From Nanoarchaeota archaeon SCGC AAA011-G17 (GTDB taxonomy: Archaea > Nanobdellota > Nanobdellia > SCGC-AAA011-G17), in the NCBI GenBank assembly GCA_000402515.1, contig AQRL01000038.1:37344-101343 (forward strand): a stretch of 64,000 bases of DNA, written 5' to 3'. Within the stretch, counting starts at the first letter, position 1, and each line of letters opens with the position of its first letter. A program made the position numbers and the translations under genes. Under the pieces are notes generated by a model. The model was not told the origin of the DNA, searched no databases, and was given only the letters and a program-made list of their open reading frames with translations. This document shows positions 8,850 to 62,384 of this stretch, in pieces.

Positions 8850-8871
8850 TTCTTTTTTTTCTTTTATTTTT
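8837..8871. repeat. 35-bp perfect direct repeat, copy A (copy B at 10199..10233); spans the stops of the converging genes and a T-tract
   Basis: gaataacttttaattcttttttttcttttattttt is identical at both sites. Confidence 0.8.
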
Positions 8872-9739: not shown

Positions 9740-10204
9740 GTGAAAATAATAAAGAATATAGCAAAGGGAGTATTAATGGGTAGTTTAGGTGCAATTATCT
9801 TTGGGTATTTATCATATATGCCACCTAATTCAAGCAAACAGTTAGAACAACAAAGGATAGAAAAAATTAAATCTGTAATAGAACCATATCATGGAAAAAT
9901 GCTTGAAGTAACAGTTACCGGACTTGATTTTGGTCGTGGTCGTTATGGTGGTCATGGTCTAGGGATTAGATTCTATGATGTTGATGGTGATGGTAAAACC
10001 GTAGAACAGTATGTTAGATCTATTGAAACAAATACTCTACCCCCTTACTGTTATAGGTATGTTGAAACAGATTTAATAAGACAAGGTCAAAAACCAGAGT
10101 TTAACCCACAAAATATTAATAATGTAAGAAGAGAGATGACAAAAACAGAAGCAGCAATTTTGGATAAAGAGTATCAAGGTCTTTTAGGCAAGTTTAAAGA
10201 ATAA
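9740..10204 (+). CDS. Hypothetical protein with N-terminal TM anchor
   Basis: ORF with a hydrophobic N-terminus. The stop lies inside repeat copy B. Confidence 0.4.
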   Translation: MKIIKNIAKGVLMGSLGAIIFGYLSYMPPNSSKQLEQQRIEKIKSVIEPYHGKMLEVTVTGLDFGRGRYGGHGLGIRFYDVDGDGKTVEQYVRSIETNTLPPYCYRYVETDLIRQGQKPEFNPQNINNVRREMTKTEAAILDKEYQGLLGKFKE

Positions 10205-10233
10205 CTTTTAATTCTTTTTTTTCTTTTATTTTT
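10199..10233. repeat. 35-bp direct repeat, copy B
   Basis: Identical to 8837..8871. Confidence 0.8.
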
Positions 10234-22056: not shown

Positions 22057-25000
22057 GTGATGGCAGTAATAGAAAAGATTAAGATGCAGGGATTTAAGTC
22101 CTTTGCCAAGTCTACTGAAGTTCCTTTAGGCAAGGATTTTAGTGTTATACTAGGCCCTAATGGCTCTGGTAAATGCCTAATTGGCAGTTCTTTAGTACAG
22201 TTAAATGATGGCTCCTTGGTTGAAATAGGTAAAATAGTTGAGGATAAATTGAAGACCAACTCTATTAAAAAAATAGATGATGGCTTTATAGCTGAAGGGG
22301 ATGATACTAAGATTATTTCTTTAAATTTAAATAACCTGAAAAATGAGGCTAAAGAGATTAAGGCTTATGTTAAAAGGGAATCTCCTGAATATTTATTAAG
22401 AATTAAGACAAGAAGCGGCAGGGAAATTACCAGTACAGAATATCATCCTTTATTTGTTTTTGAGGAGAATAGGATTAGGGCTGTTAAAGCTGACGAACTA
22501 AAAATAGGGGTTAAAATAGCTGTTCCGAGGCAGATTAGTATTGGAAAAAATAATTATTTTTATGAGTTAATTGATTTAATTGACAAAGGTGATAGAATTT
22601 ATGTTTCTTATAATGAAGAGTTTATTTGTATTTTAAATAAGTTAAAAAAATCTACATGGAAAGACTTGGCTAATGAGATAGGAATTCCTTTGAATGCTAT
22701 TAAGGGACTATTAGATAAACAGGCTATTAATTTTGCTTATTTAATTAAACTACTTAAACACTCTAAATTAAGTAATCAGGAAATAATAAAACTCATTCCT
22801 TATGTTAAATCAAAAGGCATTGAAAGAAAATATAAAGTTCCATGGTGTAATTCCAGAGAATTTTCAAGATTTTTTGGATATTTAATTGCTGAAGGAAGGT
22901 TACCAGAATCAAGTAATCAAATATGGTTTACAAATGGGGATGAGGAGATTGTTAGTGATTATGCTAATCTAGTCGCTCATTTGTTTGAAGTTAAGCCAAG
23001 CATTAATGAATATAAAGAGGGATGCTGGGATGTTTTGTTTTATTCTGTTCCAATAAGACAGATTTTAGATAAATTTGGCATGCATGTTGGTGGAAAAACC
23101 GAAAATAAAGAACTAACTAATTTATTTTTAAAAAACAGTTCTGATATAGAATTGGGAGAATTTTTATCCGGACTTTATTCCGGGGATGGCTATGTGGGAA
23201 AAAGCAGCATTGATATAATAACCAAGAGCAGAAAGTTGGGTTTTAATATTGAGAATATTTTGGTAAGATTGGGCATATTATTTAGCTCAAGATATAAAAT
23301 TAAAATTGCTACCAACAGTGGTTTTAGCGGGATTTATAGAGAAATTTCAGTATATGGCGTTGAGAATTTCTTAAAGTTTAAAAAATATGTCAATATAGTC
23401 CATAATTCAAAGAGAGAAAGGCTTGATAATCTTTTGGGCGTTAAGTCAAATCCAAATTTAGATGTTATAGATGTTAATAATTTAATAAGGAAGGTTGTTA
23501 AAGAGTTTAATATAAAAATAAAATCAAATAAGAAAGAATTTCCAAGATTAGGTGCCTATTGTTATAAACAATGTTTACCGAGCAGGAGCGGTATAAACTA
23601 TTTGATTGATAATTTGTTTTCTAACTCTAATGAACATGAGAATTTATTACTGTTAAAACAAATAGCTAACTCTGATATTTATTGGGATGAAATTATTGAG
23701 ATTGAAAAGATAAAAAGCAATGAGAAATGGGTTTATGACCTATGTATTGAAGATAATCATAATTTTATTGCGAATAATATATTTGTACATAACAGCAACA
23801 TTACAGATGCAATATGTTTTGTTCTCGGAAGATTGAGCGCCAAAAGCCTTAGAGCAGACAAGAGCGCTAATTTAATCTATAATGGGGGGAAAAAGGGGGA
23901 GCCTGCAAAAGAGGCAGAGGTAAGCATTTTGTTTGATAATTCTAATAAGTTATTTCCATTAAATGTCAGCAAGATAAAGATTACAAGAAGCGTCAGAGAA
24001 AACGGGCAGAGCAAGTACAAAATAAATGATGAAATCAGGACAAGGCAGCAGGTCATAGATTTATTGGCTGCTGGAAAGATAAATCCAGATGGGTATAATA
24101 TTGTTCTGCAGGGAGATATTACACATGTTACTGAGATGCCTACAGAGGAGAGGAGAAAGGTTATTGAGGATATTTCCGGCATTGGTGTTTATGAGGAAAA
24201 AAAAGAAAAGGCAATTAATGAATTAACAAAGGTTGATGTGAAATTAAATGAGGCAAGCATTGTTCTGAAGGAGAGAGAAACCTATCTTAGTGAGCTAAAA
24301 AAAGACAGGGATCATGCTGCTAAATACAAGGATCTTGAAGGCAATATCAAGAGGAATAAGGCTACCTTTTTGCATGTTCAGATTAATGACAAACAAAAGA
24401 AGAGGGAAGAGTTTGAAGGCAAGATTAATAAAAATCAGGAAGAGGCTGATAAGATAAGAAAGACGGTTGATGAATTGAGAGAGGAAATTAACAAAAATAA
24501 GGAAGAGATTAGTTCTATCAGCAAGGAAATAGAGGAGAAGGGAGAGAAAGAGCAGGTTAATCTTCACAGAGAGATTGAAACTGTTAAAGAGCAGAAGGCC
24601 AGAGACCAGGCAAGAATGGAGGGTTTGGGCAATGAGCTTAACAGGATTAATGAGAGAAAGAAACAATTAGAGATTGATTTAAGAGAAATAACTGAAAAGA
24701 TAAAACAACTGGAAAATGAGAGAAATAATTTAACAAAAAGAAGAAAGATTATTGTTGAAAAAGAGAGCATCATTGAAAAGAAATTAGGAGGAAAAAGAGG
24801 AGATAACAAGGAAGAGAGGGATTTAGACGAGATTGAAAAAAAGCTGGATGAAAAACAATTTATCCTGGATGAATTAAATAACAAGAAAACAATTTTGTTA
24901 AGGGATAAAGACAGATTAGACACACAGATAAATTCTCTGAATAAATTAAGCGGCGGAGATGAATTAAAAAAATTAAAAGAGTTTAAAGAGAAATTTAAAG

Positions 25001-27072
25001 AGGTTTCCAGTAATCTTAATAGTTCTTTAAAAGATAATGATAATATTGTTTCACAGCTTTCCAAGGCAAGAAGCAAATTAAGAGAGATAAGCGAGGAGCA
25101 GGCCAGATTAAGCATAAGAGAGGTTAGTTTCAAAGAAGGGGCTTATGGCGACCTTGCTTTAAACAAGATAAAAGAGCTTAGAATGAATGGGGTGTATGGG
25201 ACAATAGCTGAGCTTGGTGAGGTTGACAAGAAGTTTTCTATGGCTTTGGAGGTTGCTGCCGGCTCCAGAATAAAAAGTATTGTTGTTGAGGATGATTCTA
25301 TTGCTGCCAAGTGCATCAAATATTTAAAAGACAATAAACTAGGTGTTGTTACTTTCCTGCCTTTGAACAAAATAAAGGCTCCTGAAGCAATTGATAAAAA
25401 AGTGGGTTATGGCATTGCCCTGAATCTAATAAAATTTGACAACAAATTCAGCAGGGCATTTGGCTATGTTTTTGGAAATACAATTGTTGTTGAGAATATA
25501 AACCAGGCAAGAAATATCGGCATTGGAAAGGACAGGATGGTTACTTTAGATGGGGATTTAGTTGAGGGCTCTGGAGCAATGATTGGTGGTTTCAGAAGGC
25601 AAAAAACAGGATTTAAACAGATGGATTTTACAAAGAACCTTGAAGAGCTTAATAATGAGATTGGAAGATTAAGAGAGATTGTAGATAGTTTAGAGAAGAA
25701 AAAATTAGAGAATGAGGATAATGTTTATCTGTTAAGAAACGATAAGTCTGAATTAGAGGGAGAGATTATAAAACTGGAGAAGAGCTTTGGCGGGGAAGAA
25801 GAGAAAAATGAAAGAGAATCAGCTGTTAAAAATCTAAATAGTGTTGAAAGGGAATTAAATAATGCTGAAGCAAATTACAATAAATTGCTTAAGGATGTTG
25901 AAGAATTAAAAAATAAAAAAAGCTCTTTGAGAGAGAGTGTAAGCAAGATAAGAGGAAACAAAGAAACTGATAAAATAGATTCTGAGTTCAGGCAGATTAG
26001 AGAAGAAAGAATTGTTTTGGAGAATGAATTAAAAAATATTGAGATACAGATAAGAGACGGATTAATTCCAGAAAGAGAAAATATAATCAGGATTATTAAA
26101 GAGCATGAAAAAGAGATTTTAGAATTCCAGAAAGAGAGCGAGGATATCAGTGATAGACTTCTTAAAAATCTTAATCTTTTAAAAGATAAGGAGAGGAATG
26201 AAAAGGAATTTTATTCTAATTTCAAAAATTTATTTAACAAGAGAAACAAATTAAGCGATGAAATACAAAAGAGGGAATTAAAGAGTGTAAGTGAGTATAG
26301 CAGAGTTAGGGCAATTGAGGACAGAACTAACAGCCTGAATATTGATAGGGCAAAGGTATGTGCTGAATTAGAAGGTCTTAATGCTGAATATGAGCAGTTT
26401 AAGGAAATTCAATTAAGAAAAGGAATTGAAATGGATAAATTAAAAGAGGAAATCAGAGATTTTGAAAAGATGATGAATAATCTTGGGAATGTTAATCTAA
26501 GAGCCTTGGAGATTTATGATGAGATTGAAAAGGAGTATAATTCTTTACAGGACAAGGCTGCTACACTAAAATTAGAGAAAGAGGATGTACTAAAGATGAT
26601 TAGTGAGATAGAAAGCAAGAAAGGAGATATGTTTATGAAGAGCTATTCTGAGATAAGCAGGAATTTTGAGAGAATCTTTTCCGAATTGACTGACAAGGGA
26701 ACTGCACATCTTATTTTGGATGATAAGGACAATCCATTTAACGGCGGATTGAAGATTATGGTAAGGATTGCTAAAGGGAAATATCTGGATATCAAGAGCT
26801 TATCCGGGGGAGAAAAGACTCTGACTGCCTTGGCTTTCATATTTGCTATACAGGAATATGACCCTGGGCATTTCTATGTCTTTGATGAGGTTGATGCGGC
26901 TCTGGACAAGACTAATTCCTCTAAATTAGCTAAATTGTTAAGAAAGTACAGCGATAAGGCGCAGTATATTGTTATAAGCCATAATGACAATTTGATTTCT
27001 GAGGCTAATCAGCTATACGGCGTTAGTATGACTGAGAATGGAATGAGCAAGGTTATCAGCTTAAAGGTTTAA
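22057..27072 (+). CDS. smc: Chromosome segregation protein SMC interrupted by an in-frame intein
   Basis: The extein reads 'FKSFAKSTEVPLGKDFSVILGPNGSGK|SNITDAICFVLG' (SMC N-terminal Walker A). It has long coiled coils. C-terminal 'LSGGEKTLTALAFIFAIQ' (signature motif) and 'FYVFDEVDAALD' (Walker B) are present. Confidence 0.85.
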   Translation: MMAVIEKIKMQGFKSFAKSTEVPLGKDFSVILGPNGSGKCLIGSSLVQLNDGSLVEIGKIVEDKLKTNSIKKIDDGFIAEGDDTKIISLNLNNLKNEAKEIKAYVKRESPEYLLRIKTRSGREITSTEYHPLFVFEENRIRAVKADELKIGVKIAVPRQISIGKNNYFYELIDLIDKGDRIYVSYNEEFICILNKLKKSTWKDLANEIGIPLNAIKGLLDKQAINFAYLIKLLKHSKLSNQEIIKLIPYVKSKGIERKYKVPWCNSREFSRFFGYLIAEGRLPESSNQIWFTNGDEEIVSDYANLVAHLFEVKPSINEYKEGCWDVLFYSVPIRQILDKFGMHVGGKTENKELTNLFLKNSSDIELGEFLSGLYSGDGYVGKSSIDIITKSRKLGFNIENILVRLGILFSSRYKIKIATNSGFSGIYREISVYGVENFLKFKKYVNIVHNSKRERLDNLLGVKSNPNLDVIDVNNLIRKVVKEFNIKIKSNKKEFPRLGAYCYKQCLPSRSGINYLIDNLFSNSNEHENLLLLKQIANSDIYWDEIIEIEKIKSNEKWVYDLCIEDNHNFIANNIFVHNSNITDAICFVLGRLSAKSLRADKSANLIYNGGKKGEPAKEAEVSILFDNSNKLFPLNVSKIKITRSVRENGQSKYKINDEIRTRQQVIDLLAAGKINPDGYNIVLQGDITHVTEMPTEERRKVIEDISGIGVYEEKKEKAINELTKVDVKLNEASIVLKERETYLSELKKDRDHAAKYKDLEGNIKRNKATFLHVQINDKQKKREEFEGKINKNQEEADKIRKTVDELREEINKNKEEISSISKEIEEKGEKEQVNLHREIETVKEQKARDQARMEGLGNELNRINERKKQLEIDLREITEKIKQLENERNNLTKRRKIIVEKESIIEKKLGGKRGDNKEERDLDEIEKKLDEKQFILDELNNKKTILLRDKDRLDTQINSLNKLSGGDELKKLKEFKEKFKEVSSNLNSSLKDNDNIVSQLSKARSKLREISEEQARLSIREVSFKEGAYGDLALNKIKELRMNGVYGTIAELGEVDKKFSMALEVAAGSRIKSIVVEDDSIAAKCIKYLKDNKLGVVTFLPLNKIKAPEAIDKKVGYGIALNLIKFDNKFSRAFGYVFGNTIVVENINQARNIGIGKDRMVTLDGDLVEGSGAMIGGFRRQKTGFKQMDFTKNLEELNNEIGRLREIVDSLEKKKLENEDNVYLLRNDKSELEGEIIKLEKSFGGEEEKNERESAVKNLNSVERELNNAEANYNKLLKDVEELKNKKSSLRESVSKIRGNKETDKIDSEFRQIREERIVLENELKNIEIQIRDGLIPERENIIRIIKEHEKEILEFQKESEDISDRLLKNLNLLKDKERNEKEFYSNFKNLFNKRNKLSDEIQKRELKSVSEYSRVRAIEDRTNSLNIDRAKVCAELEGLNAEYEQFKEIQLRKGIEMDKLKEEIRDFEKMMNNLGNVNLRALEIYDEIEKEYNSLQDKAATLKLEKEDVLKMISEIESKKGDMFMKSYSEISRNFERIFSELTDKGTAHLILDDKDNPFNGGLKIMVRIAKGKYLDIKSLSGGEKTLTALAFIFAIQEYDPGHFYVFDEVDAALDKTNSSKLAKLLRKYSDKAQYIVISHNDNLISEANQLYGVSMTENGMSKVISLKV
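22174..23793 (+). mobile_element. Intein (540 aa) with LAGLIDADG homing-endonuclease domain, inserted between Lys and Ser of the SMC Walker-A motif
   Basis: It starts 'CLIGSSLVQLNDG' and ends 'NFIANNIFVHN', followed by Ser+1. DOD motifs are 'FFGYLIAEGRL' and 'FLSGLYSGDGYV'. Confidence 0.85.
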
Positions 27073-29327: not shown

Positions 29328-30587
29328 TTAGTAATAAGTCTGTCCTGCAGATGGCTCTTCTATTGATTCCTCGCCTTCATCTTCTTTTAACTTTTTGAAA
29401 GCAATGATTAATCCTAGAACAACCAAGATTATTGCTAATACTGCAAATCCTATCTGCAATACACTCTTCAAGCTGCCCATACTGGAAGCCTGAGCTTGAA
29501 CATCTGCTTCTAGATTCAACTCTTTAACAGTCTTGCCGTTTGATTTTATCTTAACAGTGAATGCGTGTTTTCCTGCCTCTGCGTTTGCATTAGCAGTTAA
29601 TTTAACATACATTTCACCTGTCTCGTCAGGCATAATTGTTACAATTGCTGGATCTACTCTTGCAGCTGCGAAAGCACCTACACCGGTTACTTCTGCTGAA
29701 TAAACTGCTTTTTCAGCTTCAAAGTTAGCAAACATCAACTTGTATACAACTTCACTTCCTGGAGCTACTGCTTTAGATGCTGCATCTACACTTATCATTG
29801 AATTTGATAATTCTGCGGATACAATACCTTTTACGTGAAGTGTCTTTGTTTCTTTCAGTGTTGAATGACCGTTGTTATAGGTAACTTCAACTTCAGCCTT
29901 GTAATCTCCTGTCTTGGCATCAGCAGGTATTCTTGCGAATAACTCTACCTGAGCTGAGGATTCATCATCGTTATTAGTATCTTCTGCATTTTGAGTTATT
30001 AACTCAGCTAAATAATCGGATGTTGAAACTCCAAGGTCTGGAATTGTCAAGCTTACTTTGATGTCTTCTTCTTTCTTGTAACCTATGTTCTCAAGCCTTA
30101 CTGAAACAAATAAAGCTGAATCAGCATCTATTGAGCTTGAAGGCCTGAAGATTACGTCTTGGATTGACAATGAATGCCTTGATTCTTTGACTCTTACATC
30201 AAAGTCTTTTTCTTCAGAATCTGTTTTGTCTGATACCTTAACAGTTAGTGTGTAGGTTTCAGAAGCGTCTAAGTCTGATGGAATGTCTAAGGTAAGTGTT
30301 TTCTTGTATGTAACACCTGATTCAACTTCAAATACATCTGATACATCTGAAATTGAGCCGTATTCATAACCATCTATCTCTGCTCTTACTTTAACGTTGT
30401 CTTTGTTTCCAGTAGCTTTAATCCATACTTCTACTGGTAATTGTTCCCCTCTTACAACATCCACTACACTTCCTGTAGCTGAGACGTCGTCTATTTTTAC
30501 ATCTGCTATTCCATAATTACTAGAACTAGCTGATACTGTTGTTAGCACCAGTAATAGTGCAAATAACATTGCTAATATTTTCTTCAT
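29328..30587 (-). CDS. Surface protein: signal peptide, beta-rich repeat domains, C-terminal TM anchor with acidic tail
   Basis: 'MKKILAMLFALLLVLTTVSASS' signal peptide. C-terminal 'IGFAVLAIILVVLGLIIAFKKLKEDEGEE'. Confidence 0.5.
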   Translation of the reverse strand: MKKILAMLFALLLVLTTVSASSSNYGIADVKIDDVSATGSVVDVVRGEQLPVEVWIKATGNKDNVKVRAEIDGYEYGSISDVSDVFEVESGVTYKKTLTLDIPSDLDASETYTLTVKVSDKTDSEEKDFDVRVKESRHSLSIQDVIFRPSSSIDADSALFVSVRLENIGYKKEEDIKVSLTIPDLGVSTSDYLAELITQNAEDTNNDDESSAQVELFARIPADAKTGDYKAEVEVTYNNGHSTLKETKTLHVKGIVSAELSNSMISVDAASKAVAPGSEVVYKLMFANFEAEKAVYSAEVTGVGAFAAARVDPAIVTIMPDETGEMYVKLTANANAEAGKHAFTVKIKSNGKTVKELNLEADVQAQASSMGSLKSVLQIGFAVLAIILVVLGLIIAFKKLKEDEGEESIEEPSAGQTYY

Positions 30588-30646: not shown

Positions 30647-33073
30647 TTATAAACCTTTCTGTTGGTTCTTTAGGTCAATAAAAAAGTATTTTGTCTCGGT
30701 ATCCTTGTTATTACTTACAGTTACAGCAATTACTTCCTGTTTCCTATCTGTATTCACTGGCAGTTTAAACATGAAGGTCTGTGTCTTTACTTCTTTTGGA
30801 TTTAGGTCAAAGCTTGATGAATATTGTATCTGGTTAAGCTCTGGCAGGGATATTGTTACTCTAACATCCTTTTCCTTTAATCCTGCAAAATTTGCTGCAA
30901 ATACTGTTACTGGGAAATACTCTCCAGGAACTACATTTTTCATGCTGTTAACTATTACTCTTTCGATTCCAATATCATGCTTTGTAGCTCTTAGTGACTT
31001 TGCTTCTTCTGTTACTGTAATCACTGCTGTTTTTTTAGATTCTAAAACACCATCTGTAACTTTGAAAATTAGATTATAGTTACCTAGTGAGCCTGGCACC
31101 CAGGTGAATAACTGATTGTTAAATGCTGCTCCCTCTGGCTTGTTTTCTGCACTGAAGGTTAGTTCATTACTGCCATCATACTGTGCTGAAATTGTGAACT
31201 CTACTTTCTGCCCTAATTTTATTTCCTGTGATGGAATATCATTCAGGCTTAAGTGGAATTCTACTGGCTCTGTGTATTTTGGAAGAACCTTGATTAGTAT
31301 TTCCTGCGTTGCTTCTGCCATGCCATCAGATGCTATTATTATTGAGATGTATTCTCCTGCATCCCCTACTCTTGTCTGCCATTCACCATTCTGGTTTAAT
31401 GGAGAGGTGTAGGAATAGGTTAATTTGTCAAAGTCCAAATCTGTAAATGAATTTCTTGGAACTATCTTTACCAAGTCTCCCTCTGTTACTATAATCGGAC
31501 CTATTGGATTAACTATATGCGGCAATCTGTTAACATCCTTTACTGAGATTATTACTTCCTGCTGGGCATTCAAACTTCCTGCAGATGCCTTGAATGTTAG
31601 TTTAAACTCACATTTTCCGTCATTTCTGCACTGCTTCCCATTTGTGAAATAGTTTGTTATGAATATCTTTATTGTGTCAATAAATGTCCTTTCATGGCTT
31701 ACTGTGTTGTAATCAGGAGTCCAAGCGAATTTATAGCCCAGTAATGGGGCTGGATAATTTAGTACTCCTGGGCCATAGACTGGCTCAAAGGCTGCTCCAC
31801 TTGGCAGGTTTTCTGCAGAATAGTCTATCTTTTGATTTCCATTATAATAAGATGGAGTTACAAAGAAGGTTAATTCTGAGCCTTCATTTACACCCTGATT
31901 AGGTATGAATTTCAAGTCTAGTACTTGTTCTGTTGGAGTTGTTTTTTCGTGAACGGTTAATGGAATTGTCAATACTTGTGATGGATAGTTGCTTATTCCA
32001 TTACATTTTGGATCCTCTGGCATTCCTTCTACTCTTATTGTGTAATCCCCTGCTTTATTTGGTGTCCATGTAAATGAAAACTCTTTTGTATTCTTTAGAT
32101 AGTAATAGGTGTAAGTATAAGCTACTTTCCCGCTTGAATCTTTTACTGTTAGCTTAACTTTATCTTTTACAGGCTCTGTATTCTGGTAGTTATCAATGTA
32201 ATAGGATGATTTATCCCCTGTGATTGTTATTAATTCTCCTACTTCTGCATCAATTGGATTTGATGTTCCTGGTCTATTTAGAATGGTGTAGCAGGCATTT
32301 TGCGGAACATTTTCATGAACCTTGAATTCTGCACTAGCTGTATTTGTTTTTGAAGATGAGCATTTTGAATCAACTACATCTGTTGTTATAAACGCTACAT
32401 AATCATCCTCTAGTGTTGGTGTCCATGTAAATTCAACTGATTGTGAAGAATCCATGAAGATATTTAGTGTCTTTGATTCTTTATATTCATAAGTTGAAAT
32501 ATTGAGATTAGATTTCTTGTAAATCCATAGTGTTACTTTTGTTTCAGCTGAATAGAAATCCCTGTACTCTGCTGGTATGAAAGCAGGTGTATTGCTATTT
32601 GAATGTAATGCTGAATAGGTATCTGCATCTAGTGAAGCTGGAACTTTGATTATTAATGGGATGTTCGGTCTTACATCATTTAGAACTTCAATATGGTCAA
32701 TAGGTGCTGAGCACTGGGCTTTCTTCTCTAGAGTAACTAGTTCAGTTGATTCACCATTTCCATAAACACTCTTGAATGCTTCTTTTCCAAGATATCCCTG
32801 CTTAAAGGCATAAACAGCATATCCGTATTGTGTTGGCAGATTTGTTGGGTACCATACTTTTATATCATAATTTGGATCATTGGCATTTGTATTCCCATTT
32901 GCATGAGGCGTTACAGAACTACAAGATGCATCATTACAAGTATAGGCTAGAAAATTAACATTGTCTAATTTATTCCCATCTTTATTCTGAAATTCATAAG
33001 TCATAATTACCTGAGCACTAGCTAGACTTATTAAAAATACAAATAAGATAGGGATTAAAAGTAATTTTTTCAT
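30647..33073 (-). CDS. Large secreted adhesin-like protein (808 aa) with multiple Ig/cadherin-like repeat modules
   Basis: Signal peptide 'MKKLLLIPILFVFLISLASAQ'. Repeated '...FTWTP...' beta-sandwich-like modules. No TM. Confidence 0.5.
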   Translation of the reverse strand: MKKLLLIPILFVFLISLASAQVIMTYEFQNKDGNKLDNVNFLAYTCNDASCSSVTPHANGNTNANDPNYDIKVWYPTNLPTQYGYAVYAFKQGYLGKEAFKSVYGNGESTELVTLEKKAQCSAPIDHIEVLNDVRPNIPLIIKVPASLDADTYSALHSNSNTPAFIPAEYRDFYSAETKVTLWIYKKSNLNISTYEYKESKTLNIFMDSSQSVEFTWTPTLEDDYVAFITTDVVDSKCSSSKTNTASAEFKVHENVPQNACYTILNRPGTSNPIDAEVGELITITGDKSSYYIDNYQNTEPVKDKVKLTVKDSSGKVAYTYTYYYLKNTKEFSFTWTPNKAGDYTIRVEGMPEDPKCNGISNYPSQVLTIPLTVHEKTTPTEQVLDLKFIPNQGVNEGSELTFFVTPSYYNGNQKIDYSAENLPSGAAFEPVYGPGVLNYPAPLLGYKFAWTPDYNTVSHERTFIDTIKIFITNYFTNGKQCRNDGKCEFKLTFKASAGSLNAQQEVIISVKDVNRLPHIVNPIGPIIVTEGDLVKIVPRNSFTDLDFDKLTYSYTSPLNQNGEWQTRVGDAGEYISIIIASDGMAEATQEILIKVLPKYTEPVEFHLSLNDIPSQEIKLGQKVEFTISAQYDGSNELTFSAENKPEGAAFNNQLFTWVPGSLGNYNLIFKVTDGVLESKKTAVITVTEEAKSLRATKHDIGIERVIVNSMKNVVPGEYFPVTVFAANFAGLKEKDVRVTISLPELNQIQYSSSFDLNPKEVKTQTFMFKLPVNTDRKQEVIAVTVSNNKDTETKYFFIDLKNQQKGL

Positions 33074-36715: not shown

Positions 36716-36828
36716 TGGGAACGTGGGGATTTGAACCCCAATCAACTGGTGTCTTCTAAATCACAGCCGAAGCTCATCACTCCAAACACTGGAGCCAGTT
36801 ACACTAAACCAGGTTGTGCTACGCTCCC
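36716..36828 (-). tRNA. tRNA-Trp (anticodon CCA) containing a 38-nt intron at the canonical 37/38 position
   Basis: Reverse complement folds as a cloverleaf. Acceptor GGGAGCG/CGTTCCC. D-arm GCAC..GTGT with GG in the loop. Anticodon stem ACTGG/CCAGT. Loop CUCCAG|A. T-arm TGGGG-TTCAAAT-CCCCA. Discriminator A73. No encoded CCA. Confidence 0.7.
36751..36788 (-). other. tRNA intron (bulge-helix-bulge type)
   Basis: The intron TGTTTGGAGTGATGAGCTTCGGCTGTGATTTAGAAGAC pairs TGGAG with the anticodon-loop CUCCA. It contains a box-C-like GTGATGA. Confidence 0.6.
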
Positions 36829-53543: not shown

Positions 53544-54893
53544 TTATTCGTATCTTGCAGATGGTTGATATTTTTTACCCTTGCCTTTTCCGAATGGGTT
53601 CTTTATAGAAACTCTTGTTAAAATTAAGATTACTAAAACTACTGATACTATGACTATTAATACTGTACTGTTATTCTTTGCTGCCCCTATAACTGCACCT
53701 GTAATTCCTGCTAATCCTCCTGTTGTTGGTGTTACTGTTTCAGTTGGTGCTACTTCTGTTGGTGTTACTGGTGTTTCTTCAGTAGTTGTTTCTGCTGGTG
53801 TTACTCCAACTCGTGTTCCACCTGCACCACCTGCATTTGTTGTTGTACTTGATGATGGTGTTGAAGTTGTTGTTGTACTTGTATCTGCTAATAATGTGAA
53901 TTTTGTAAAGTGGGACACCTTGAACTCTATTTTGTTATTTGCAGGATCTCTTACTATCTCTGTTATTCCTGCATTTGTCCAATCATTAGATGCTACATCA
54001 AAGAAGTATGGGCTTATTTTGCTTTCATCTGTAATTCCTGCTAAAGCAAGTTCTTCATCAGTATAAGTAATGGTTAATGTTACTGGCTCATTAAATACAT
54101 TTGTTGTTCCGCCATCTATCTGGAATTCAAATATTTTTGATAATACCTTTAATGTAACTGTTGTTGGGGCTGCTACAGCATTCTTTGCTATTTGCTGTAC
54201 TTTAATCCCGGTTGCTCCTGCTGGTAGTGCATTTGCTGGGATTTTAATTTCTGAACTACCTAAATTAATAGTATTTTCTACTCTCTTGTCTGTAACTGTG
54301 ACTGGTGTTTCTGGGGCGGTTACTTCAAAATTTGAAGGGCCTCTGAAATTAGCTTGGTTATCATCTGTTCCGCCATAAACTCTTGCTTCTACTTCTACAC
54401 TTTGATCAACAAATGTTCCTGGAAGCTTTGACTGGTCAATTATTAGTGTGTAGGTGATAAAGCCTGAGCCTTGATTTGGTATTGCTCCATAGCCATAACC
54501 ATATCCAAAGTTCTGATATCCATACCCATTTCCATAGCCGTAGCCATAACCATAATCCTGTTTATAATTCAAATTACTAACATCTGTTTGTACTGATGTT
54601 ATAAAGTCACAATCTGACTTATCATCTTGTATTCTACATGTAAGTTTATTATCCCCATCATTGAAGATTAAATCTGTGTATTGTATTGGAAGGAATTCTC
54701 CATCATTTATTGTTACACTAATAGTAAATGTGTATTTTGTTGGATTTCCATTCCCATCCTTAGAAAAAACATTAATATCTGGTGTTGTCAGAGAAACGTC
54801 AATTGCTCGTGCTGGACCTGAGAAAATAAGTAAGGAAATAACTGCAATTGTCAAGAAAATACTGATTATATTCTTTTTTGCATTAGTGTTCAT
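53544..54893 (-). CDS. Surface protein: signal peptide, YG-repeat domain, Thr/Pro-rich stalk, C-terminal TM anchor
   Basis: 'YGYGYGYGNGYGYQNFGYGYGYG'. 'STTTTSTPSSSTTTN...TPTEVAPTETVTPTTGG'. C-terminal TM plus 'KGKGKK'. The N-terminal domain is paralogous to 55710..58787. Confidence 0.5.
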   Translation of the reverse strand: MNTNAKKNIISIFLTIAVISLLIFSGPARAIDVSLTTPDINVFSKDGNGNPTKYTFTISVTINDGEFLPIQYTDLIFNDGDNKLTCRIQDDKSDCDFITSVQTDVSNLNYKQDYGYGYGYGNGYGYQNFGYGYGYGAIPNQGSGFITYTLIIDQSKLPGTFVDQSVEVEARVYGGTDDNQANFRGPSNFEVTAPETPVTVTDKRVENTINLGSSEIKIPANALPAGATGIKVQQIAKNAVAAPTTVTLKVLSKIFEFQIDGGTTNVFNEPVTLTITYTDEELALAGITDESKISPYFFDVASNDWTNAGITEIVRDPANNKIEFKVSHFTKFTLLADTSTTTTSTPSSSTTTNAGGAGGTRVGVTPAETTTEETPVTPTEVAPTETVTPTTGGLAGITGAVIGAAKNNSTVLIVIVSVVLVILILTRVSIKNPFGKGKGKKYQPSARYE

Positions 54894-54974
54894 CAGAATC
54901 TTTTTAGAAACTCAAACTTTATAAATATTCCTACTAATCTTTAGATAGTTAAAAATATATATTTGAGTATATAA

Positions 54975-55295
54975 TCAAGCAGGAATTGAAATTTTTTCCT
55001 TTAAGAGTTTTTCTGCTTCTATATTAACAACAGACCAATAATAATCTATAAACTTCTCTACCAAGGGATTATCCCTGTTTAACTTATACATCTTAGCTTT
55101 CCCAACATCCCTTGTATGTATAACTATCTCTCTTTTAATCAATTCTTTCCAGATTTCCTTTAGAGCAGTATAACTTACTTTTGAATATCCTGCAATGTCT
55201 TTCATTGAATAGTCAAATTCAGAATGAACTATCAAAAAATTCCAAATCCTATTTTTTACATTATTCCCTTCAATTTTTAAAAATGCAGATACCAT
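54975..55295 (-). CDS. Small winged-helix DNA-binding protein
   Basis: ~106 aa. 'MKDIAGYSKVSYTALKEIWKELIKREIV' has a wHTH-like layout. Confidence 0.35.
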   Translation of the reverse strand: MVSAFLKIEGNNVKNRIWNFLIVHSEFDYSMKDIAGYSKVSYTALKEIWKELIKREIVIHTRDVGKAKMYKLNRDNPLVEKFIDYYWSVVNIEAEKLLKEKISIPA

Positions 55296-55398
55296 ACATT
55301 ATTCAGTAATTTAGTTATTTATAAATGTTTCTTTTTTGACTCTTAAGGGCCATAAAAATGGCTAAATATTTATATTGTTAAAATTATTTGATCATTAT

Positions 55399-55708
55399 AT
55401 GAAGATAAAGAAGAGCGAATATATTATAATAAGCAGAACCTTAATAAGAAAATTATATGATGAAACCTGTTTTGGCAAGGGTTCCTTATATGCTGAAAAT
55501 CTAAGGGGGGGGCATTCCAAATAACTATATTGATAAGATGGAAATTGTTCTTGATGCTTTAGTTAAACAGAATATCTGTGGAAGAAAAAAGAAAGAACAT
55601 GGCTGGAAATATTTTTTAAATATAAAAAGAATGGATAAAATAAAAGAGATAATAAAAGAAAAAGGGGATAACTCGATAATTCCTATTTTGTTAATTTTAG
55701 AGATTTAG
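55399..55708 (+). pseudogene. ~104-aa ORF split by a +1 frameshift in a G8 homopolymer (55505..55512)
   Basis: Frame 1 ends 'LRGGHSK*'. Removing one G fuses it to the downstream frame 'IPNNYIDKMEIVLDALVKQNICGRKKKEHGWKYF...ILEI*'. Confidence 0.35.
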
Positions 55709-55709
55709 A

Positions 55710-58700
55710 TTATACACATTCCTCTGTGCTGAGATAATTAAGGAGCTTTATCATGTCGTGTATATCTGTTTTACCGTCCTGATTTACATCTGCCTTATTA
55801 TCCTCTGTGTTTAGTATCTTTAGTATTTCAAGCAAATCATAGACATCTACCTTATCATCCTTTGTTATATCTGCATACTGCTTACAGCTTGGGTTAATAA
55901 TCAAAACTGTCTTTGCTGCTGCTGCTGTTAGTGTGGCTTTTGATACCTCCAAGGTTATTCTCTGCTGCCCTGTTGTTGTGTAAAAGTGTGTTGTTGCTGG
56001 TGTATCAAGATAAGGTGTATCAAATGCGCCATCATTATTGAAGTCCCATCTGTATCTTAGTTTCTCATCACATCTCTTTGTATCAAGTAATTTTGTCAGC
56101 TTGTAAATGTCTATAGCATCAATCTTTCCGTCAGCATTTAAATCTCCCTTCTTAACAGGGGATTGTTTCGTCAAGGATAGTAATTCGATAAGGTCAAAAA
56201 TATTTATTTTATTATTTGAATCCAGATCAGCGTTCTTACACTCTGGGTCGTAACTTGAATCTGCATTTAATGTGAAATTTAATCCTATTCCTCCCTTATC
56301 CGGGGTTGATGTGAAGCTTGCTAGTATTGAGGAGAAGGAAACATCGAATCCTTCATCTATCTGTCCATCACAATCATTGTCTTTTCTATCAAAGATTTCT
56401 GTTGCTCCTGGATATGATTCTTTATTAAGATCATCACAGTCATTTGTCTTTCTTGCTGTGTAATAGCCTTCTGATTTTTCTAATTCCTTGAATCTGGAGG
56501 TTCCGTAGCCATCCTTATCAAAGTCGTAATAGAACTTGAATAATTCTACTGGCTTTACCTCTGTTTTCTTTCCCATTGTGAACAGGGATAAGTGATTAGT
56601 AATTGCCCATACATAATTCTCCTCTGTGTTTACACCTGAGTTTGGCTCCTGGACCCAGTCTTTCAGATCTTCATTATAGTAATACATACGTAATTCTGAT
56701 TCTGGAGTAGTTCCAAGATCTTCTGGATCTCTGTAATGCATCTTTAATAATGCCTGCTTGATGTCATTCTCTATCTGTGCTTCTGGTTCTATAACCATGA
56801 ATTTTTGATTTGTTAATCCGGGTAGTGTAAAGCTCTGCTCTGCTGGCATTTCATCGTATACCTTTACAGTAATGCTTCCTGATTGTTGCTCATTTGTTGA
56901 TATGCTTAATTCAAATCCTGTTTCATCTTCATTTGTTTCTATCTTTGATAGTGTTTGTTCAGCTTGTTGCAGTGTTTCTACGATTGTTGTTATTAATGGG
57001 ACTAGAACATCCTGCTTTGTTTCCATCTTTGGTGGCTCTGAGCCTATGCATGTTCCCCAAACACCTGTTGACTGACATGTCTTTGTTCCTCCGACTCCGC
57101 AGATATTTGTTGCTGCCGGCTTACAATCTTGCAATGAACCGGATTCTGAATTATCTGTTAGACTTGAGCAGTCAAGGTCGTTAAGATCTGAAAATCCGTC
57201 ATTATCATTATCTAGATTATCATTACACTGGTTTGGTGTTTCTGGGATTGGGATGATACAATTATTTCCTGATTTTACATAGCCAACGTCACAGGTGTAT
57301 TCACACTTTTGAGAAGAGCATGAAGATACTAAATTTCTTGATGCATCTGCTGTTAAACCCTTATTATCGTCTGTGCATAATCCAGAATTTGCTGGGATTA
57401 ATCCTGTACATAGTGGAGGAAGTTGTAAGGTACAACTATTTCCTGATTTTGTATAGCCAGAAGGACATATATATTCACACTTATTAGCATCAGTACAACT
57501 GTTTGCCAGACTTCTTGTTGTGTCTACTAGTAAATTCTTATTATCATCTGCACATAACTGGGCATTAGATATAGTTGCTCCTGTACATGAGAAGGTTGGT
57601 GGGATAACTGCACACTCATTTCCTGATTTTGTAAATCCTGATGAACAAGTATATTCACATTTTACAGTTGTACATGAGGATGTTAAACTTCTTGTTGTGT
57701 TTGCTGTTAATCCAGTATCATCATCTGCACATAACTGGGCATTAGATATAGTTGCTCCTGTACATGAGAAGGTTGGTGGGATAACTGCACAGACATTATT
57801 TTCATCAATCAAGTTATTACAATTATTATCTATTCCATCACATATTTCTGTTGATGGTGTGCATGTTGGCTGACAGATGTTTCCTTCATCTACATTTCCA
57901 TCACAATCATTATCTATATCATCACATTTTTCAATTCCAGGCTCTATCTCAGACTGAGTAAGCGACCATGAGCCTGAAACACAGGTGTTTATTTCTTTTC
58001 TGCATGCCCCTTCATCTGTTCCTGTTTCTGCTGTTAAATCCTCATCTATTATATTATTACAATTATCATCCTTGTTATTACAGACTTCTGCTGCTGATGG
58101 TTTTTCTCCTATACAGGCAGACCATTTTCCAGCTGTACAGGTTTGAGTTCCAAATTTACACTCTCCTGTATTTGAAGAACCACATGGCTTTGTATCCCCA
58201 CTCTGGCATTCACCAACTGTAAATGTGCTTGAATCTTTTGCATATTCAAAGGAGTTTATTTCCCCGACTGAATTTACCTTTAGCGTTGCCTTGAAATTTC
58301 CAGCTGTCAGTGATTCTGAAGAAACATCCCATGTAATTGTGTATGATAAAATACCTGTGAAGCCAAATCCGGTTCCTCCGTAGCCATAGCCATAGCCGAA
58401 TAGAGTTCCCTGGTAATTATTATTTGCACCATAGCCATAACCATATAATTGTTCACTTGTTCCATAATCCCCTGAATTTGTTCTGGTTATTGTCAGGTAA
58501 TCACAGCCTGAAACCTTTGTGCCATCTGGGTAAAAAACACATTCTTTTAAAAATGGAAGAGAATTATCATAAATCTGCAACTTTAAGGTCTGAATAGGAA
58601 TTCTTTCATTAGCTGGAATATCTATCCCTACATTGAAATTAATTGTTTCTGTTTTCAGATAACTTGCTTTGTTTGTTGTTATGCTCAAGTCTACTGCATT

Positions 58701-58787
58701 TGCAATTCCGGTGAAAAGCAGGATAATTATTATAGAAACAGTAAGAATACTACTAACTAAAGTTTTTCCCCTCTTGTTCAATTTCAT
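55710..58787 (-). CDS. Giant surface protein (1025 aa): signal peptide, YG-repeat domain, Cys-rich EGF-like modules, two C-terminal dockerin-like modules
   Basis: 'YGYGYGANNNYQGTLFGYGYGYGG'. Repeated 'CAVIPPTFSCTGATISNAQLCADD' modules. Ca-binding-like 'DLDSNNKINIFDL', 'DLNADGKIDAIDI', 'DITKDDKVDVYDL', 'DVNQDGKTDIHDM'. Confidence 0.6.
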   Translation of the reverse strand: MKLNKRGKTLVSSILTVSIIIILLFTGIANAVDLSITTNKASYLKTETINFNVGIDIPANERIPIQTLKLQIYDNSLPFLKECVFYPDGTKVSGCDYLTITRTNSGDYGTSEQLYGYGYGANNNYQGTLFGYGYGYGGTGFGFTGILSYTITWDVSSESLTAGNFKATLKVNSVGEINSFEYAKDSSTFTVGECQSGDTKPCGSSNTGECKFGTQTCTAGKWSACIGEKPSAAEVCNNKDDNCNNIIDEDLTAETGTDEGACRKEINTCVSGSWSLTQSEIEPGIEKCDDIDNDCDGNVDEGNICQPTCTPSTEICDGIDNNCNNLIDENNVCAVIPPTFSCTGATISNAQLCADDDTGLTANTTRSLTSSCTTVKCEYTCSSGFTKSGNECAVIPPTFSCTGATISNAQLCADDNKNLLVDTTRSLANSCTDANKCEYICPSGYTKSGNSCTLQLPPLCTGLIPANSGLCTDDNKGLTADASRNLVSSCSSQKCEYTCDVGYVKSGNNCIIPIPETPNQCNDNLDNDNDGFSDLNDLDCSSLTDNSESGSLQDCKPAATNICGVGGTKTCQSTGVWGTCIGSEPPKMETKQDVLVPLITTIVETLQQAEQTLSKIETNEDETGFELSISTNEQQSGSITVKVYDEMPAEQSFTLPGLTNQKFMVIEPEAQIENDIKQALLKMHYRDPEDLGTTPESELRMYYYNEDLKDWVQEPNSGVNTEENYVWAITNHLSLFTMGKKTEVKPVELFKFYYDFDKDGYGTSRFKELEKSEGYYTARKTNDCDDLNKESYPGATEIFDRKDNDCDGQIDEGFDVSFSSILASFTSTPDKGGIGLNFTLNADSSYDPECKNADLDSNNKINIFDLIELLSLTKQSPVKKGDLNADGKIDAIDIYKLTKLLDTKRCDEKLRYRWDFNNDGAFDTPYLDTPATTHFYTTTGQQRITLEVSKATLTAAAAKTVLIINPSCKQYADITKDDKVDVYDLLEILKILNTEDNKADVNQDGKTDIHDMIKLLNYLSTEECV
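57543..57614. repeat. 72-bp perfect direct repeat inside the giant surface-protein gene (second copy at 57720..57791, period 177 bp)
   Basis: Identical DNA at both sites. It corresponds to the duplicated Cys-rich module. Confidence 0.8.
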
Positions 58788-59737: not shown

Positions 59738-59970
59738 TAAAGGGGAAAATCAATAAGGAAGTCAAGGAGCTTGTTTTGTGGCGTTTAGAAACAAGCGTAC
59801 CAGAGCATTTTAAATTATCTGTAGGGGGGAAGGGATCTTTTAACAAAGAAGAGCTGAAAAAGGCTGTTGAAGAAGAGACTGATGTTGGAATAGCCTTTAT
59901 AGATATGCAGCTTAATTTTATTAAAGCACTAACCAGCGGCAAGTTTTATAAGATTCCAATATCAGAATGA
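59734..59970 (+). CDS. Hypothetical small protein (second of the operon)
   Basis: 4-nt overlaps on both sides. Confidence 0.35.
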   Translation: MIKGKINKEVKELVLWRLETSVPEHFKLSVGGKGSFNKEELKKAVEEETDVGIAFIDMQLNFIKALTSGKFYKIPISE

Positions 59971-60629
59971 GAAAAGCAATTTTGGTAACAAGACCCAGAT
60001 ATGATGATGCAACAGAATATCTTTTTTGTTATGCTAAAAAAGCAATAGACTTTGCAAAAGAAAAAAATATTGAAGTTCTTGATTTAATAAGGTCACGCTT
60101 AACCCAGAAAAATTTTTCAGATTTAATTTCCAAGAAAGACCCTCTTTTAGTTTTCTTTAATGCACATGGAGATGAAAACACAATATATGGAGATAAGATT
60201 AAGGGTGAAGAAGAGGCATTAATCAAGGAGGATAAAAATCATAATCTTCTAAATAAAAGAATTGTTTATGCCCGTGCCTGTTTGTCTTCAGCTTCTTTGG
60301 GGCAAAAGGCATGTAAGGACGGCTGTTTTATTGGTTATAGAATGCCCTTTAGTTTTTGGGTTGATAATAGGTGGTCTGCCAAGCCATTGAATGATAACAC
60401 AGCAAAATTATTCCTTGAGCCTTCAAATCTAATTATCATTTCTTTATTGAAGGGAAATAGCGCCAAGGAGGCACATGAGAAATCATTGAAAATGGCAAGC
60501 AGGAACATCTTGGAATTATTGAAAAATAAAGACGAGCCAGGGGCAATGGCATCTATTATGCTGTTATGGAACAATATGCAGTATCAAGAAATTCTTGGAA
60601 ATGAAGATATGGCTTTTGATGTTCTATAG
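59967..60629 (+). CDS. Hypothetical protein with a caspase/CHAT-like His...Cys arrangement
   Basis: 'FFNAHGDENTIYG' (His-Gly) and 'VYARACLSSAS' (Cys) are spaced ~38 aa apart. The assignment is speculative. Confidence 0.3.
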   Translation: MRKAILVTRPRYDDATEYLFCYAKKAIDFAKEKNIEVLDLIRSRLTQKNFSDLISKKDPLLVFFNAHGDENTIYGDKIKGEEEALIKEDKNHNLLNKRIVYARACLSSASLGQKACKDGCFIGYRMPFSFWVDNRWSAKPLNDNTAKLFLEPSNLIIISLLKGNSAKEAHEKSLKMASRNILELLKNKDEPGAMASIMLLWNNMQYQEILGNEDMAFDVL

Positions 60630-61892: not shown

Positions 61893-62099
61893 ATGTCAAA
61901 ACTTCCCAAGGTCGTTAAAGGTAAAGAGATTCTCAAAGTACTTGTTAAACATGGTTATGAAATTAAAAGGCAAAAAGGAAGTCATGTTTCTCTTTCAAAT
62001 AAAGAGATTAATATTACTGTTGTTCTTCCACTAACAACCATTGGAGTCTACAGGCAAATTTCTAAAAAAACAGGGATTCCTGTTGAAGAGTTTTTATAA
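61893..62099 (+). CDS. hicA: HicA-family (YcfA-like) mRNA interferase toxin
   Basis: 'KVLVKHGYEIKRQKGSHVSLSNKEINITVVLP...IGVYRQISKKTGIP' is the HicA pattern with the conserved GSH. Confidence 0.55.
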   Translation: MSKLPKVVKGKEILKVLVKHGYEIKRQKGSHVSLSNKEINITVVLPLTTIGVYRQISKKTGIPVEEFL

Positions 62100-62384
62100 G
62101 AATATTTTTGTTAACATTGGCATTTCAAACTTTTCTTCATCAGATTCTATAAGAGAGCATCTCTCTTCCGGAAAACTTTCTAGATGAAATCTTGCTCCTT
62201 CAGTAAATTTATTAACTGCCTCATCTATTGTTTTTCCTTCTGCAAAAACATTAATATCCGGGCTAGTAGCTATAAACATAGTACTATCTTTAACTTTTCC
62301 CTTTTCTATAACAATATTTAAACCAATCTTTTCCATTTTAACACCCTTAAAAATGAATACCTGCTCCTTTTTAAAACTTTCCAA
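62094..62384 (-). CDS. hicB: HicB-like (UPF0150) antitoxin-domain protein, convergent with hicA
   Basis: 'IVIEKGKVKDSTMFIATSPDINVFAEGKTIDEAVNKFTEGARFHLE' matches the UPF0150/HicB N-domain pattern. Confidence 0.45.
   Translation of the reverse strand: MESFKKEQVFIFKGVKMEKIGLNIVIEKGKVKDSTMFIATSPDINVFAEGKTIDEAVNKFTEGARFHLESFPEERCSLIESDEEKFEMPMLTKIFL

Follow-up and report, generated by a model that had tools for sequence, protein, structure and literature searches.

An attached life on other cells is generally assumed for DPANN archaea, and to our knowledge few of the proteins that make this contact have been described. What, then, are the two secreted proteins encoded close together in a 64,000-nucleotide stretch (the window) of the genome of Nanoarchaeota archaeon SCGC AAA011-G17 (contig AQRL01000038.1, positions 37,344 to 101,343; GC content ~32%)? 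One has 1025 amino acids (aa) and the other, its paralog, 449. We consider them probably to be paralogous cell-surface adhesins that follow one plan of head, joint and anchor, the joint being a predicted self-cleaving GAIN-like domain. Two further contigs enter the argument: L001, an independent assembly from another sample, 98.8% identical to the window over 4.5 kb, and L002, a third contig with a 78%-identical ortholog. The genes and their terminal features, in window coordinates, are:

55710-58787 (-): gene for the 1025-aa protein (48 Cys), with a 99%-identical copy in L001
53544-54893 (-): gene for the 449-aa paralog, by open reading frame (ORF) reading
58695-58787 (-): signal peptide of the large protein, aa 1-31 (…LLFTGIANA/VD), aligning with that of the paralog
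53616-53669 (-): C-terminal transmembrane helix of the 449-aa paralog, aa 409-426 (helix in the model), followed by a basic tail

The initial annotation of this DNA had read both products as secreted surface proteins and as paralogs, and both statements hold. BLASTP aligns the two at 34% identity over aa 1-156 (E=9e-10), a span that runs from the signal peptide through the N-terminal domain and includes the Tyr-Gly (YG) runs. A second, weaker segment pairs aa 626-738 of the large protein with aa 215-334 of the small one (E=0.002), terminating in NHLSLFTM in the former and SHFTKFTL in the latter. We read the domain order of the 1025-aa protein as signal peptide, YG-loop head, Cys-rich modules, GAIN-like domain, MopE motif, PKD domain with a nested dockerin, and dockerin. 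That of the 449-aa paralog, which has no Pfam match at E<=1, is signal peptide, immunoglobulin (Ig)-like YG-loop head, GAIN-like domain, Thr/Pro-rich stalk and C-terminal membrane helix.

The family is large. A first search round gave 33 clusters, and an exhaustive profile search gave 405 representatives with E<=1e-30, or 3278 when the limit is set at E<=1e-10. The plan of the small protein is that of its family: signal peptide, head, middle domain ending in H-F-T-x-F, low-complexity stalk and C-terminal membrane helix. Among 167 family sequences, (Y/F/W-G)x3 runs occur in 129, the motif H[FL][ST]x[FYW] in 121 (HFT 91, HFS 24, HLS 5, HLT 2) and the C-terminal hydrophobic helix in 138. Named homologs come from Candidatus Woesearchaeota (45% identity), Aenigmarchaeota and one unclassified euryarchaeote; among the matches listed from a scan of genome-collection contigs there was one weak locus, at 28% identity, in a Nanoarchaeum sp. 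metagenome-assembled genome. One subfamily (P0161, P0173) places two cytoplasmic HTH_3 DNA-binding domains and a membrane helix ahead of the YG head, H-F-T domain and C-terminal helix, which suggests membrane-tethered regulators with a YG/H-F-T ectodomain and hints at a use in signaling.

The head and the predicted self-cleaving joint

GAIN-like 'MAIN' domains have been described across bacteria and archaea (Brogan and Rudner, May 2026 preprint, 10.64898/2026.05.12.724683). The head and middle domains of the two window proteins are placed as follows:

58209-58694 (-): head domain of the large protein, aa 32-193, homologous to the paralog head; fold taken from the paralog model
58359-58445 (-): Tyr-Gly-rich loop of the large protein, aa 115-143, kept across the family
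54318-54803 (-): head domain of the 449-aa paralog, aa 31-192; predicted Ig-like beta-sandwich, predicted local distance difference test score (pLDDT) ~90
54486-54554 (-): Tyr-Gly loop of the 449-aa paralog, aa 114-136
56565-56921 (-): predicted GAIN/ZU5-like ('MAIN'-type) domain of the large protein, aa 623-741, aligned with the domain of the paralog family
56586-56594 (-): H732-L733-S734, predicted autoproteolytic site (cut L/S), aligning with the family H-F-T and with HL/T of ADGRF1
53880-54308 (-): predicted GAIN/ZU5-like domain of the 449-aa paralog, aa 196-338
53904-53912 (-): H328-F329-T330, predicted autoproteolytic site, in the turn that joins the last two strands (321-328 and 331-337 in the prediction)

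The YG run reads YGYGYG...FGYGYGYGGTGFGF in the large protein and YGYGYGYGNGYGYQNFGYGYGYG in the small one. Because the Tyr and Gly positions are conserved in 22 homologs (Y116, G117 and Y118 invariant, most of the neighboring Y/G at least 90% conserved), these runs are not free low-complexity sequence. An AlphaFold2 model of the paralog, made with 22 homologs, has pLDDT ~90 for the head and middle domains and below 50 for the loop (aa 111-139). We infer that the loop is the contact surface of the head. The head family has no Pfam model, and a literature search for 'YGYGYG' in archaeal proteins gave nothing relevant: its matches concern synthetic amyloid peptides and the D segments of bovine antibodies, no more than analogies.

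The middle domain of the paralog is predicted to be a beta-sandwich like GAIN_B and ZU5. Foldseek with the model ranked the GAIN domain of CD97 first (E=3.5e-5). With profiles of the middle domain alone, eight of the 13 top PDB matches were to the ankyrin ZU5 or to the GPS motifs of ADGRB2 and ADGRF1 (E=0.059 for the latter), and the profile alignment sets H-F-T on the HL/T cleavage site and the conserved Trp on the GPS Trp. For two family members GPS was the sole Pfam match, below threshold (E=0.13-0.2). In a family of 22-50% identity, the His of the motif never varies, and the F/L, T/S and F positions hardly do (F, T and F at least 90% conserved). We assign the domain as GAIN-like because the sequence matches, non-significant one by one, agree with the fold result and with the position of the motif. 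It is thus predicted to be a GAIN/ZU5-like autoproteolytic domain with H-(F/L)-(T/S)-x-F at its end, matching the 'MAIN' domains, and by analogy we infer cleavage at H-x-(S/T) in both proteins.

Several results weigh against this assignment. Both window proteins score below every curated GPS (PF01825), ZU5 (PF00791), GAIN and PGF-pre-PGF model: the GPS, ZU5 and GAIN Pfam models gave no match at E<=1 in either protein, nor did PGF-pre-PGF (TIGR04213) match either. The PDB sequence matches of the middle domain are individually non-significant (E>=0.059). AlphaFold2 on aa 586-1025 of the large protein (4-sequence alignment) returned a mean pLDDT of 30.8 and no usable model, and the large protein's copy of the domain is shorter and more diverged than that of the paralog. 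Some ZU5 domains, such as that of ankyrin, are non-cleaving.

The subthreshold GPS/ZU5 matches and the existence of non-cleaving ZU5 domains would also fit a non-catalytic beta-sandwich spacer, comparable to the ankyrin ZU5 or to PGF-pre-PGF, in which H-F-T would be structural only; so would the relative P0190, where PGF-pre-PGF forms a separate domain downstream of the HFS domain and ends in TFSSFAI, without His. Such a spacer seems unlikely to us, however, given how strictly the motif is kept despite the divergence of the family, and given its place in a turn ahead of the last strand, the point of cleavage in GAIN and MAIN domains.

In the self-cleaving reading, a Sec signal peptide would be followed by an Ig-like beta-sandwich whose Tyr-Gly loop contacts the target; disulfide-rich MopE motifs and three six-Cys modules would lengthen the head of the large protein. 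At the joint, Thr or Ser would attack the preceding peptide bond in an N-to-O acyl shift, by analogy with GAIN and the bacterial MAIN domains. The cut halves would remain joined because the last strand stays in the sandwich, and force could then free the head.

The proposed anchor segments and the dockerins

The anchor of the 449-aa protein would be its Thr/Pro stalk and C-terminal membrane helix. That of the 1025-aa protein would consist of a MopE motif, the PKD domain with its nested dockerin, and the terminal dockerin, for which hidden Markov model (HMM) matches and direct reading give:

56349-56438 (-): fourth MopE motif, aa 784-813; 44.4 bits, HMM positions 1-30 of 30
55887-56336 (-): PKD domain, aa 818-967, apparently split by dockerin 1
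56070-56240 (-): dockerin 1, aa 850-906, bracketed by Cys850/Cys906, apparently in the PKD loop; Dockerin_1 29.0 bits
55716-55886 (-): dockerin 2, aa 968-1024, at the C-terminus, bracketed by Cys968/Cys1024; Dockerin_1 29.9 bits

The large protein had been described as ending in two tandem dockerin-like modules. Two modules there are, Pfam Dockerin_1 (PF00404) matching the whole protein in two stretches with 41.5 bits (cut-off 22.9), but they are not strictly in tandem: a PKD domain lies between them, with dockerin 1 apparently inserted in it. Each dockerin is a duplicated segment of a 12-residue Ca-binding loop then a helix; by direct reading these are DLDSNNKINIFD-LIELLSL and DLNADGKIDAID-IYKLTKLL in dockerin 1, and DITKDDKVDVYD-LLEILKIL and DVNQDGKTDIHD-MIKLLNYL in dockerin 2. 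Against NCBIfam dockerin_GC, dockerin 2 scored 20.3 bits, under the cut-off of 29.

One PKD domain is formed by FSSILASFTSTPDKGGIGLNFTLNADSSYDPE, before dockerin 1, and LRYRWDFNNDG…LIINPS, after it. When dockerin 1 was excised in silico, the PKD (PF00801) score rose from 25.5 bits to 30.7-31.1 and that of PKD_4 (PF18911) from 22.9 to 29.7-33.2, passing the cut-off of 27, while coverage of the PKD HMM grew from positions 28-78 to 14-78. The C-terminal part by itself scored 26.0 bits (cut-off 23.5). On these scores dockerin 1 is apparently nested in a loop of the PKD domain. A point against this is that the full-length HMMER scan puts one of the dockerin matches over aa 880-923, where it runs into the 'WDFNNDG' loop of the PKD domain; the exact borders of dockerin 1 are model-dependent because full-length and fragment scans place the match differently.

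The dockerins are the candidate anchor because the MopE motif, PKD domain and dockerins occupy the segment after the predicted cut. This role lends a structural rationale to the earlier idea of docking to a cohesin-type partner: the dockerins would plug Ca-dependently into a receptor, of the cohesin type or another, which could belong to the envelope of the cell itself or to a host cell. Two observations weigh against it. Cohesin matched none of 12 likely-extracellular window proteins (an 808-aa protein scanned at E<=0.01, the two paralogs and nine proteins with hydrophobic N-termini at E<=1), and reports of archaeal dockerins often name no clear partner (PMC9012536). In archaea, dockerins and cohesins are found outside cellulosomes and are capable of specific binding, in roles that are unclear (PMC9012536). 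Our literature search on dockerins in named DPANN lineages found nothing relevant.

With the last 213 aa of the large protein as query, a single homolog was found, a 143-aa fragment. Two relatives, P0268 (MBI4009847.1, Candidatus Aenigmarchaeota, 1564 aa) and the metagenomic P0234, repeat the long architecture: both have a signal peptide, a YG head, an H-F-T domain, MopE motifs and one or more C-terminal Cys-bracketed dockerins. These two differ from the large protein in having three aBig_2 domains in place of the six-Cys modules, and the PKD-nested dockerin is not seen in them.

We also compared the tail with L002. At L002 1437-2272, corresponding to window 54906-56570, the MopE/PKD/dockerin tail is swapped for a C-terminal domain of 182 aa that contains Cys, is unrelated and has no Pfam match. 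Beyond it the sequence rejoins the window ahead of the 449-aa paralog, in its promoter region. The C-terminal tail of the large protein thus appears to behave like an exchangeable cassette.

The dockerin-like modules might be mere Ca-binding EF-hand pairs that stabilize, cross-link or bind glycans or the S-layer, with no cohesin involved, in an adhesin or matrix protein that is shed or secreted instead of anchored. This would agree with the lack of a cohesin in the window scan, with the many further motifs that may bind Ca or a metal (MopE four times, plus an acidic loop) and with the replacement of the dockerin/PKD tail in L002; because L002 carries an unrelated domain there, the tail would be dispensable for the core protein. 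It agrees less well with the full duplicated loop-helix layout of both modules, which pass the Dockerin_1 threshold, and with the paralog family, where an anchor follows the GAIN-like domain (membrane helix in 138 of 167), as fits an anchoring tail. We regard this alternative as possible though rather doubtful.

With similar reserve, we suggest that the YG head and GAIN-like module might form a force-sensitive attachment device with which DPANN episymbionts grip and release host cells. If that were true, the Tyr-Gly loop would be a generic sticky contact surface, the joint would break under load, and the anchor would be interchangeable (membrane helix, dockerins, or the other C-terminal cassette of L002). 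P0161 and P0173 would then link the device to gene regulation, as an archaeal counterpart of adhesion G-protein-coupled receptor (GPCR)- or Notch-style mechanosensing.

A second surface-protein cluster is found at 29328-30587(-) and 30647-33073(-), encoding two more secreted proteins, whose Ig-like domains are of the FixG_C, NPCBM_assoc, He_PIG and PKD types. A C-terminal membrane helix is present in one of them; neither has a cohesin match.

Cysteine-rich modules, the 72-bp repeat and other features of the window

Between the head and the predicted joint of the large protein are:

57792-58208 (-): Cys-rich region with three MopE-type motifs (PF11617), aa 194-332; 59.2 bits, three stretches
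57261-57791 (-): three six-Cys modules, 59 aa (aa 333-391), 60 aa (aa 392-451) and 58 aa (aa 452-509) long
57720-57791 (-): 72-bp repeat, module 1 copy
57543-57614 (-): 72-bp repeat, module 2 copy, encoding CAVIPPTFSCTGATISNAQLCADD
57168-57227 (-): Cys-bracketed acidic D/N-rich loop CNDNLDNDNDGFSDLNDLDC, aa 521-540, resembling a Ca-binding loop

The modules had been called EGF-like, a name that finds no backing: no EGF family matched at E<=1 with the whole large protein or with Cys-rich fragments. The PF11617 'putative metal-binding' motif passes for the whole protein, with 76.5 bits in four stretches (cut-off 27). For the six-Cys modules Sushi/CCP (PF00084) summed to 26.8 bits (cut-off 20.7), its best stretch covering only HMM positions 23-39 of 56; they have six Cys each and no Trp, whereas the Sushi pattern is four Cys and a conserved Trp. 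The acidic loop scored 19.9 bits with NCBIfam acid_disulf_rpt, under the cut-off of 41. By these matches the Cys-rich parts apparently are not EGF modules but MopE-type motifs together with three six-Cys modules of 58-60 aa.

The first Cys-rich region also stands out in the comparison with L001. A 409-bp tract at 57878-58286 (gene nucleotides 502-910, aa 168-304) holds 38 of the 42 nucleotide differences and 12 of the 14 amino-acid changes; divergence is ~9% inside it and ~0.15% in the remainder of the gene. The patch looks like an imported recombinant tract. We also considered a diversity-generating retroelement target and rejected it, as no template copy was found, the exact window repeats of at least 30 bp being only the 72-bp and 35-bp pairs; no dedicated search for a nearby reverse transcriptase was run.

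The 72-bp perfect repeat reported earlier is present (57543-57614 = 57720-57791, the starts lying 177 bp apart). No exact repeat of the window is longer, and only one other, of 35 bp, reaches 30 bp. Since the flanking module sequence is only ~43-65% identical, 72 consecutive matches would not be expected by chance (probability ~1e-13 or less by our own estimate). The two copies are likewise identical, in frame and at the same positions in L001.

An assembly artefact, that is, a collapsed or chimeric repeat, might be suspected from sources that are short-read metagenome assemblies. We rejected it as highly improbable on the L001 copy and on a separate, comparable 76-bp tract in L002, elsewhere in the unit; the L001 and L002 contig names (k141_…), as far as names can tell, also suggest a final k-mer of 141, above 72 bp, that would span the repeat.

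The initial annotation had taken the repeat as a very recent module duplication and had suggested that its number may vary. Modules 1 and 2 match exactly over the first 24 codons only and then diverge strongly, including a 3-bp indel, so that identity covers just 72 of 177-180 bp; and the module count is three in the window, L001 and L002. Window and L002 modules are one-to-one orthologs (amino-acid identity W1-L1 72%, W2-L2 62%, W3-L3 81%). L002 module 2 starts with a different, shorter sequence (CILPPVCTG…); therefore the 5′ part of module 2 appears to have been overwritten by module 1 in the window lineage. The exact tract of L002 is at the 3′ end of its modules 2 and 3, another part of the unit than in the window. 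Because the modules are diverged, one-to-one orthologous and constant in count, and because L002 has an independent tract, we see the array as old, stable in number and subject to patchy gene conversion. The 72-bp identity is, by this comparison, a short conversion tract between two old neighboring modules, a by-product rather than a fresh duplication. An exact internal repeat can thus stem from short-tract gene conversion in an old array.

These data bear on a further alternative, in which the large protein would be a cohesin-docked, cellulosome-style component and the repeat a freshly duplicated module of variable copy number. We think this improbable. Two Dockerin_1 modules do score above threshold, the exact repeat does exist, and binding between archaeal cohesins and dockerins is on record (PMC9012536); set against these are the lack of a cohesin among the window's candidate extracellular ORFs, the restriction of identity to 72 of ~178 bp, and the three modules shared with L001 and, one-to-one orthologous, with the 78%-identical L002. 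Adhesins with an old module array and a predicted self-cleaving joint remain our preferred reading.

A small ORF is set between the paralogs:

54975-55295 (-): 106-aa ORF without signal peptide or family match

It is missing from the corresponding position in L002, and its product is likely a winged-helix protein.

Elsewhere in the window, the genes for an Lhr-type helicase at 11560-15858(-) and an SMC protein at 22057-27072(+) each carry an intein with a LAGLIDADG homing-endonuclease domain, and an XPD helicase gene is also present. A 113-nt tRNA gene at 36716-36828(-), presumably intron-bearing, was found by Rfam (49.3 bits) and missed by ARAGORN. Together with the GC content and the named homologs of the two proteins, this tRNA, the inteins and the XPD gene mark the window as archaeal, with a DPANN-type organism as its probable origin. 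The 35-bp exact direct repeat (8837-8871 and 10199-10233; GAATAACTTTTAATTCTTTTTTTTCTTTTATTTTT) belongs to two genes that lie 1.36 kb apart, overlapping the stop codon and the T-rich 3′ end of each. At 61893-62384 two small genes, for 68 aa (+) and 96 aa (-), are convergent and slightly overlap; the 68-aa product, judged by its sequence, resembles a HicA-type toxin, and the pair may be a toxin-antitoxin system. In L001 a 99-bp inverted repeat (1-99 and 7393-7491, 96/99 identical) splits a 220-aa ORF (window 59967-60629), with a ~5.7-kb block of glycosyltransferase and polysaccharide-synthesis genes between the halves; this is either an inversion/insertion variant or a contig-end artefact.

Comparison with known systems

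The ZU5, GPS and Nup98 autopeptidase domains form one superfamily, and ZU5 occurs in large bacterial surface proteins (Zhang et al., 2012, PMC3482391). The best structural matches to the paralog model are the GAIN/GPS domains of CD97/ADGRE5, ADGRF1, BAI and CELSR and the ZU5 domains of ankyrin, UNC5, PIDD and the CARD8/NLRP1 FIIND. The window-family pattern W…H-F-T-x-F-[AT]-[VIL]-L aligns on the GPS pattern W…C-x-C-x-H-L-T-x-F-x-[IV]-L. Unlike the adhesion GPCRs, the window proteins lack the GPS cysteines, an evident GAIN_A helical subdomain and a downstream seven-transmembrane receptor.

The MAIN proteins have a near-universal order of signal peptide, adhesion or enzyme domains, MAIN and surface anchor; cleavage is at H-F/S, the fragments stay associated, and shear-triggered release has been proposed (10.64898/2026.05.12.724683). 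The anchors named in the preprint are sortase signals, cell-wall-binding domains and SLH domains, with dockerins unmentioned (10.64898/2026.05.12.724683). Both window proteins have the same domain order, ending in a surface anchor, as MAIN proteins such as Bacillus subtilis YfkN, and like them have H-x-(S/T) in the turn ahead of the last strand; the likeness to YfkN is by the preprint's description only. They differ in motif (mostly H-F-T in the window family and H-L-S in the large protein, against H-F-S), in anchor (C-terminal membrane helix or dockerins, against sortase, cell-wall-binding or SLH) and in their YG-loop Ig-like head, which has no Pfam model.

With cellulosomal type I dockerins and archaeal ones (Archaeoglobus, anaerobic methanotrophic (ANME) archaea) the window modules share two F-hand Ca loops plus helices, and they pass the Pfam threshold; their placement at the C-terminus of a secreted modular protein is also that of known dockerins. 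Unlike cellulosomal dockerins, they come without enzyme cargo, and no cohesin is in view in the window scan; the modules are closed by a Cys-Cys bracket, also found in the dockerins of the Aenigmarchaeota relative, and one is apparently inserted in a PKD loop. Clostridial type I dockerins have a Ser-Thr pair at the recognition positions, unlike the large protein, where these are hydrophobic (IF/AI, VY/IH).

The MopE-related giant surface proteins of Myxococcota, Omnitrophota and others share the PF11617 motifs, and hundreds of them are the top whole-protein matches to the large protein; Omnitrophota proteins match its six-Cys modules at 38-45% identity. The matches to these giant proteins cover 6-39% of the large protein, and they lack the YG head, HFT domain and dockerin tail.

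The building blocks are all of known kinds, and it is their combination that is unusual. New are the YG-loop head family without a curated model, the dockerin tail downstream of a predicted GAIN-like domain, and the dockerin apparently set in a PKD loop. The family, with its DNA-binding-domain fusions, may be a general archaeal surface-sensing module. The locus offers a testable pair, with a shared head and predicted self-cleaving joint on two different anchors, and would extend the release mechanism proposed for MAIN proteins to small archaea and to dockerin-type anchoring.

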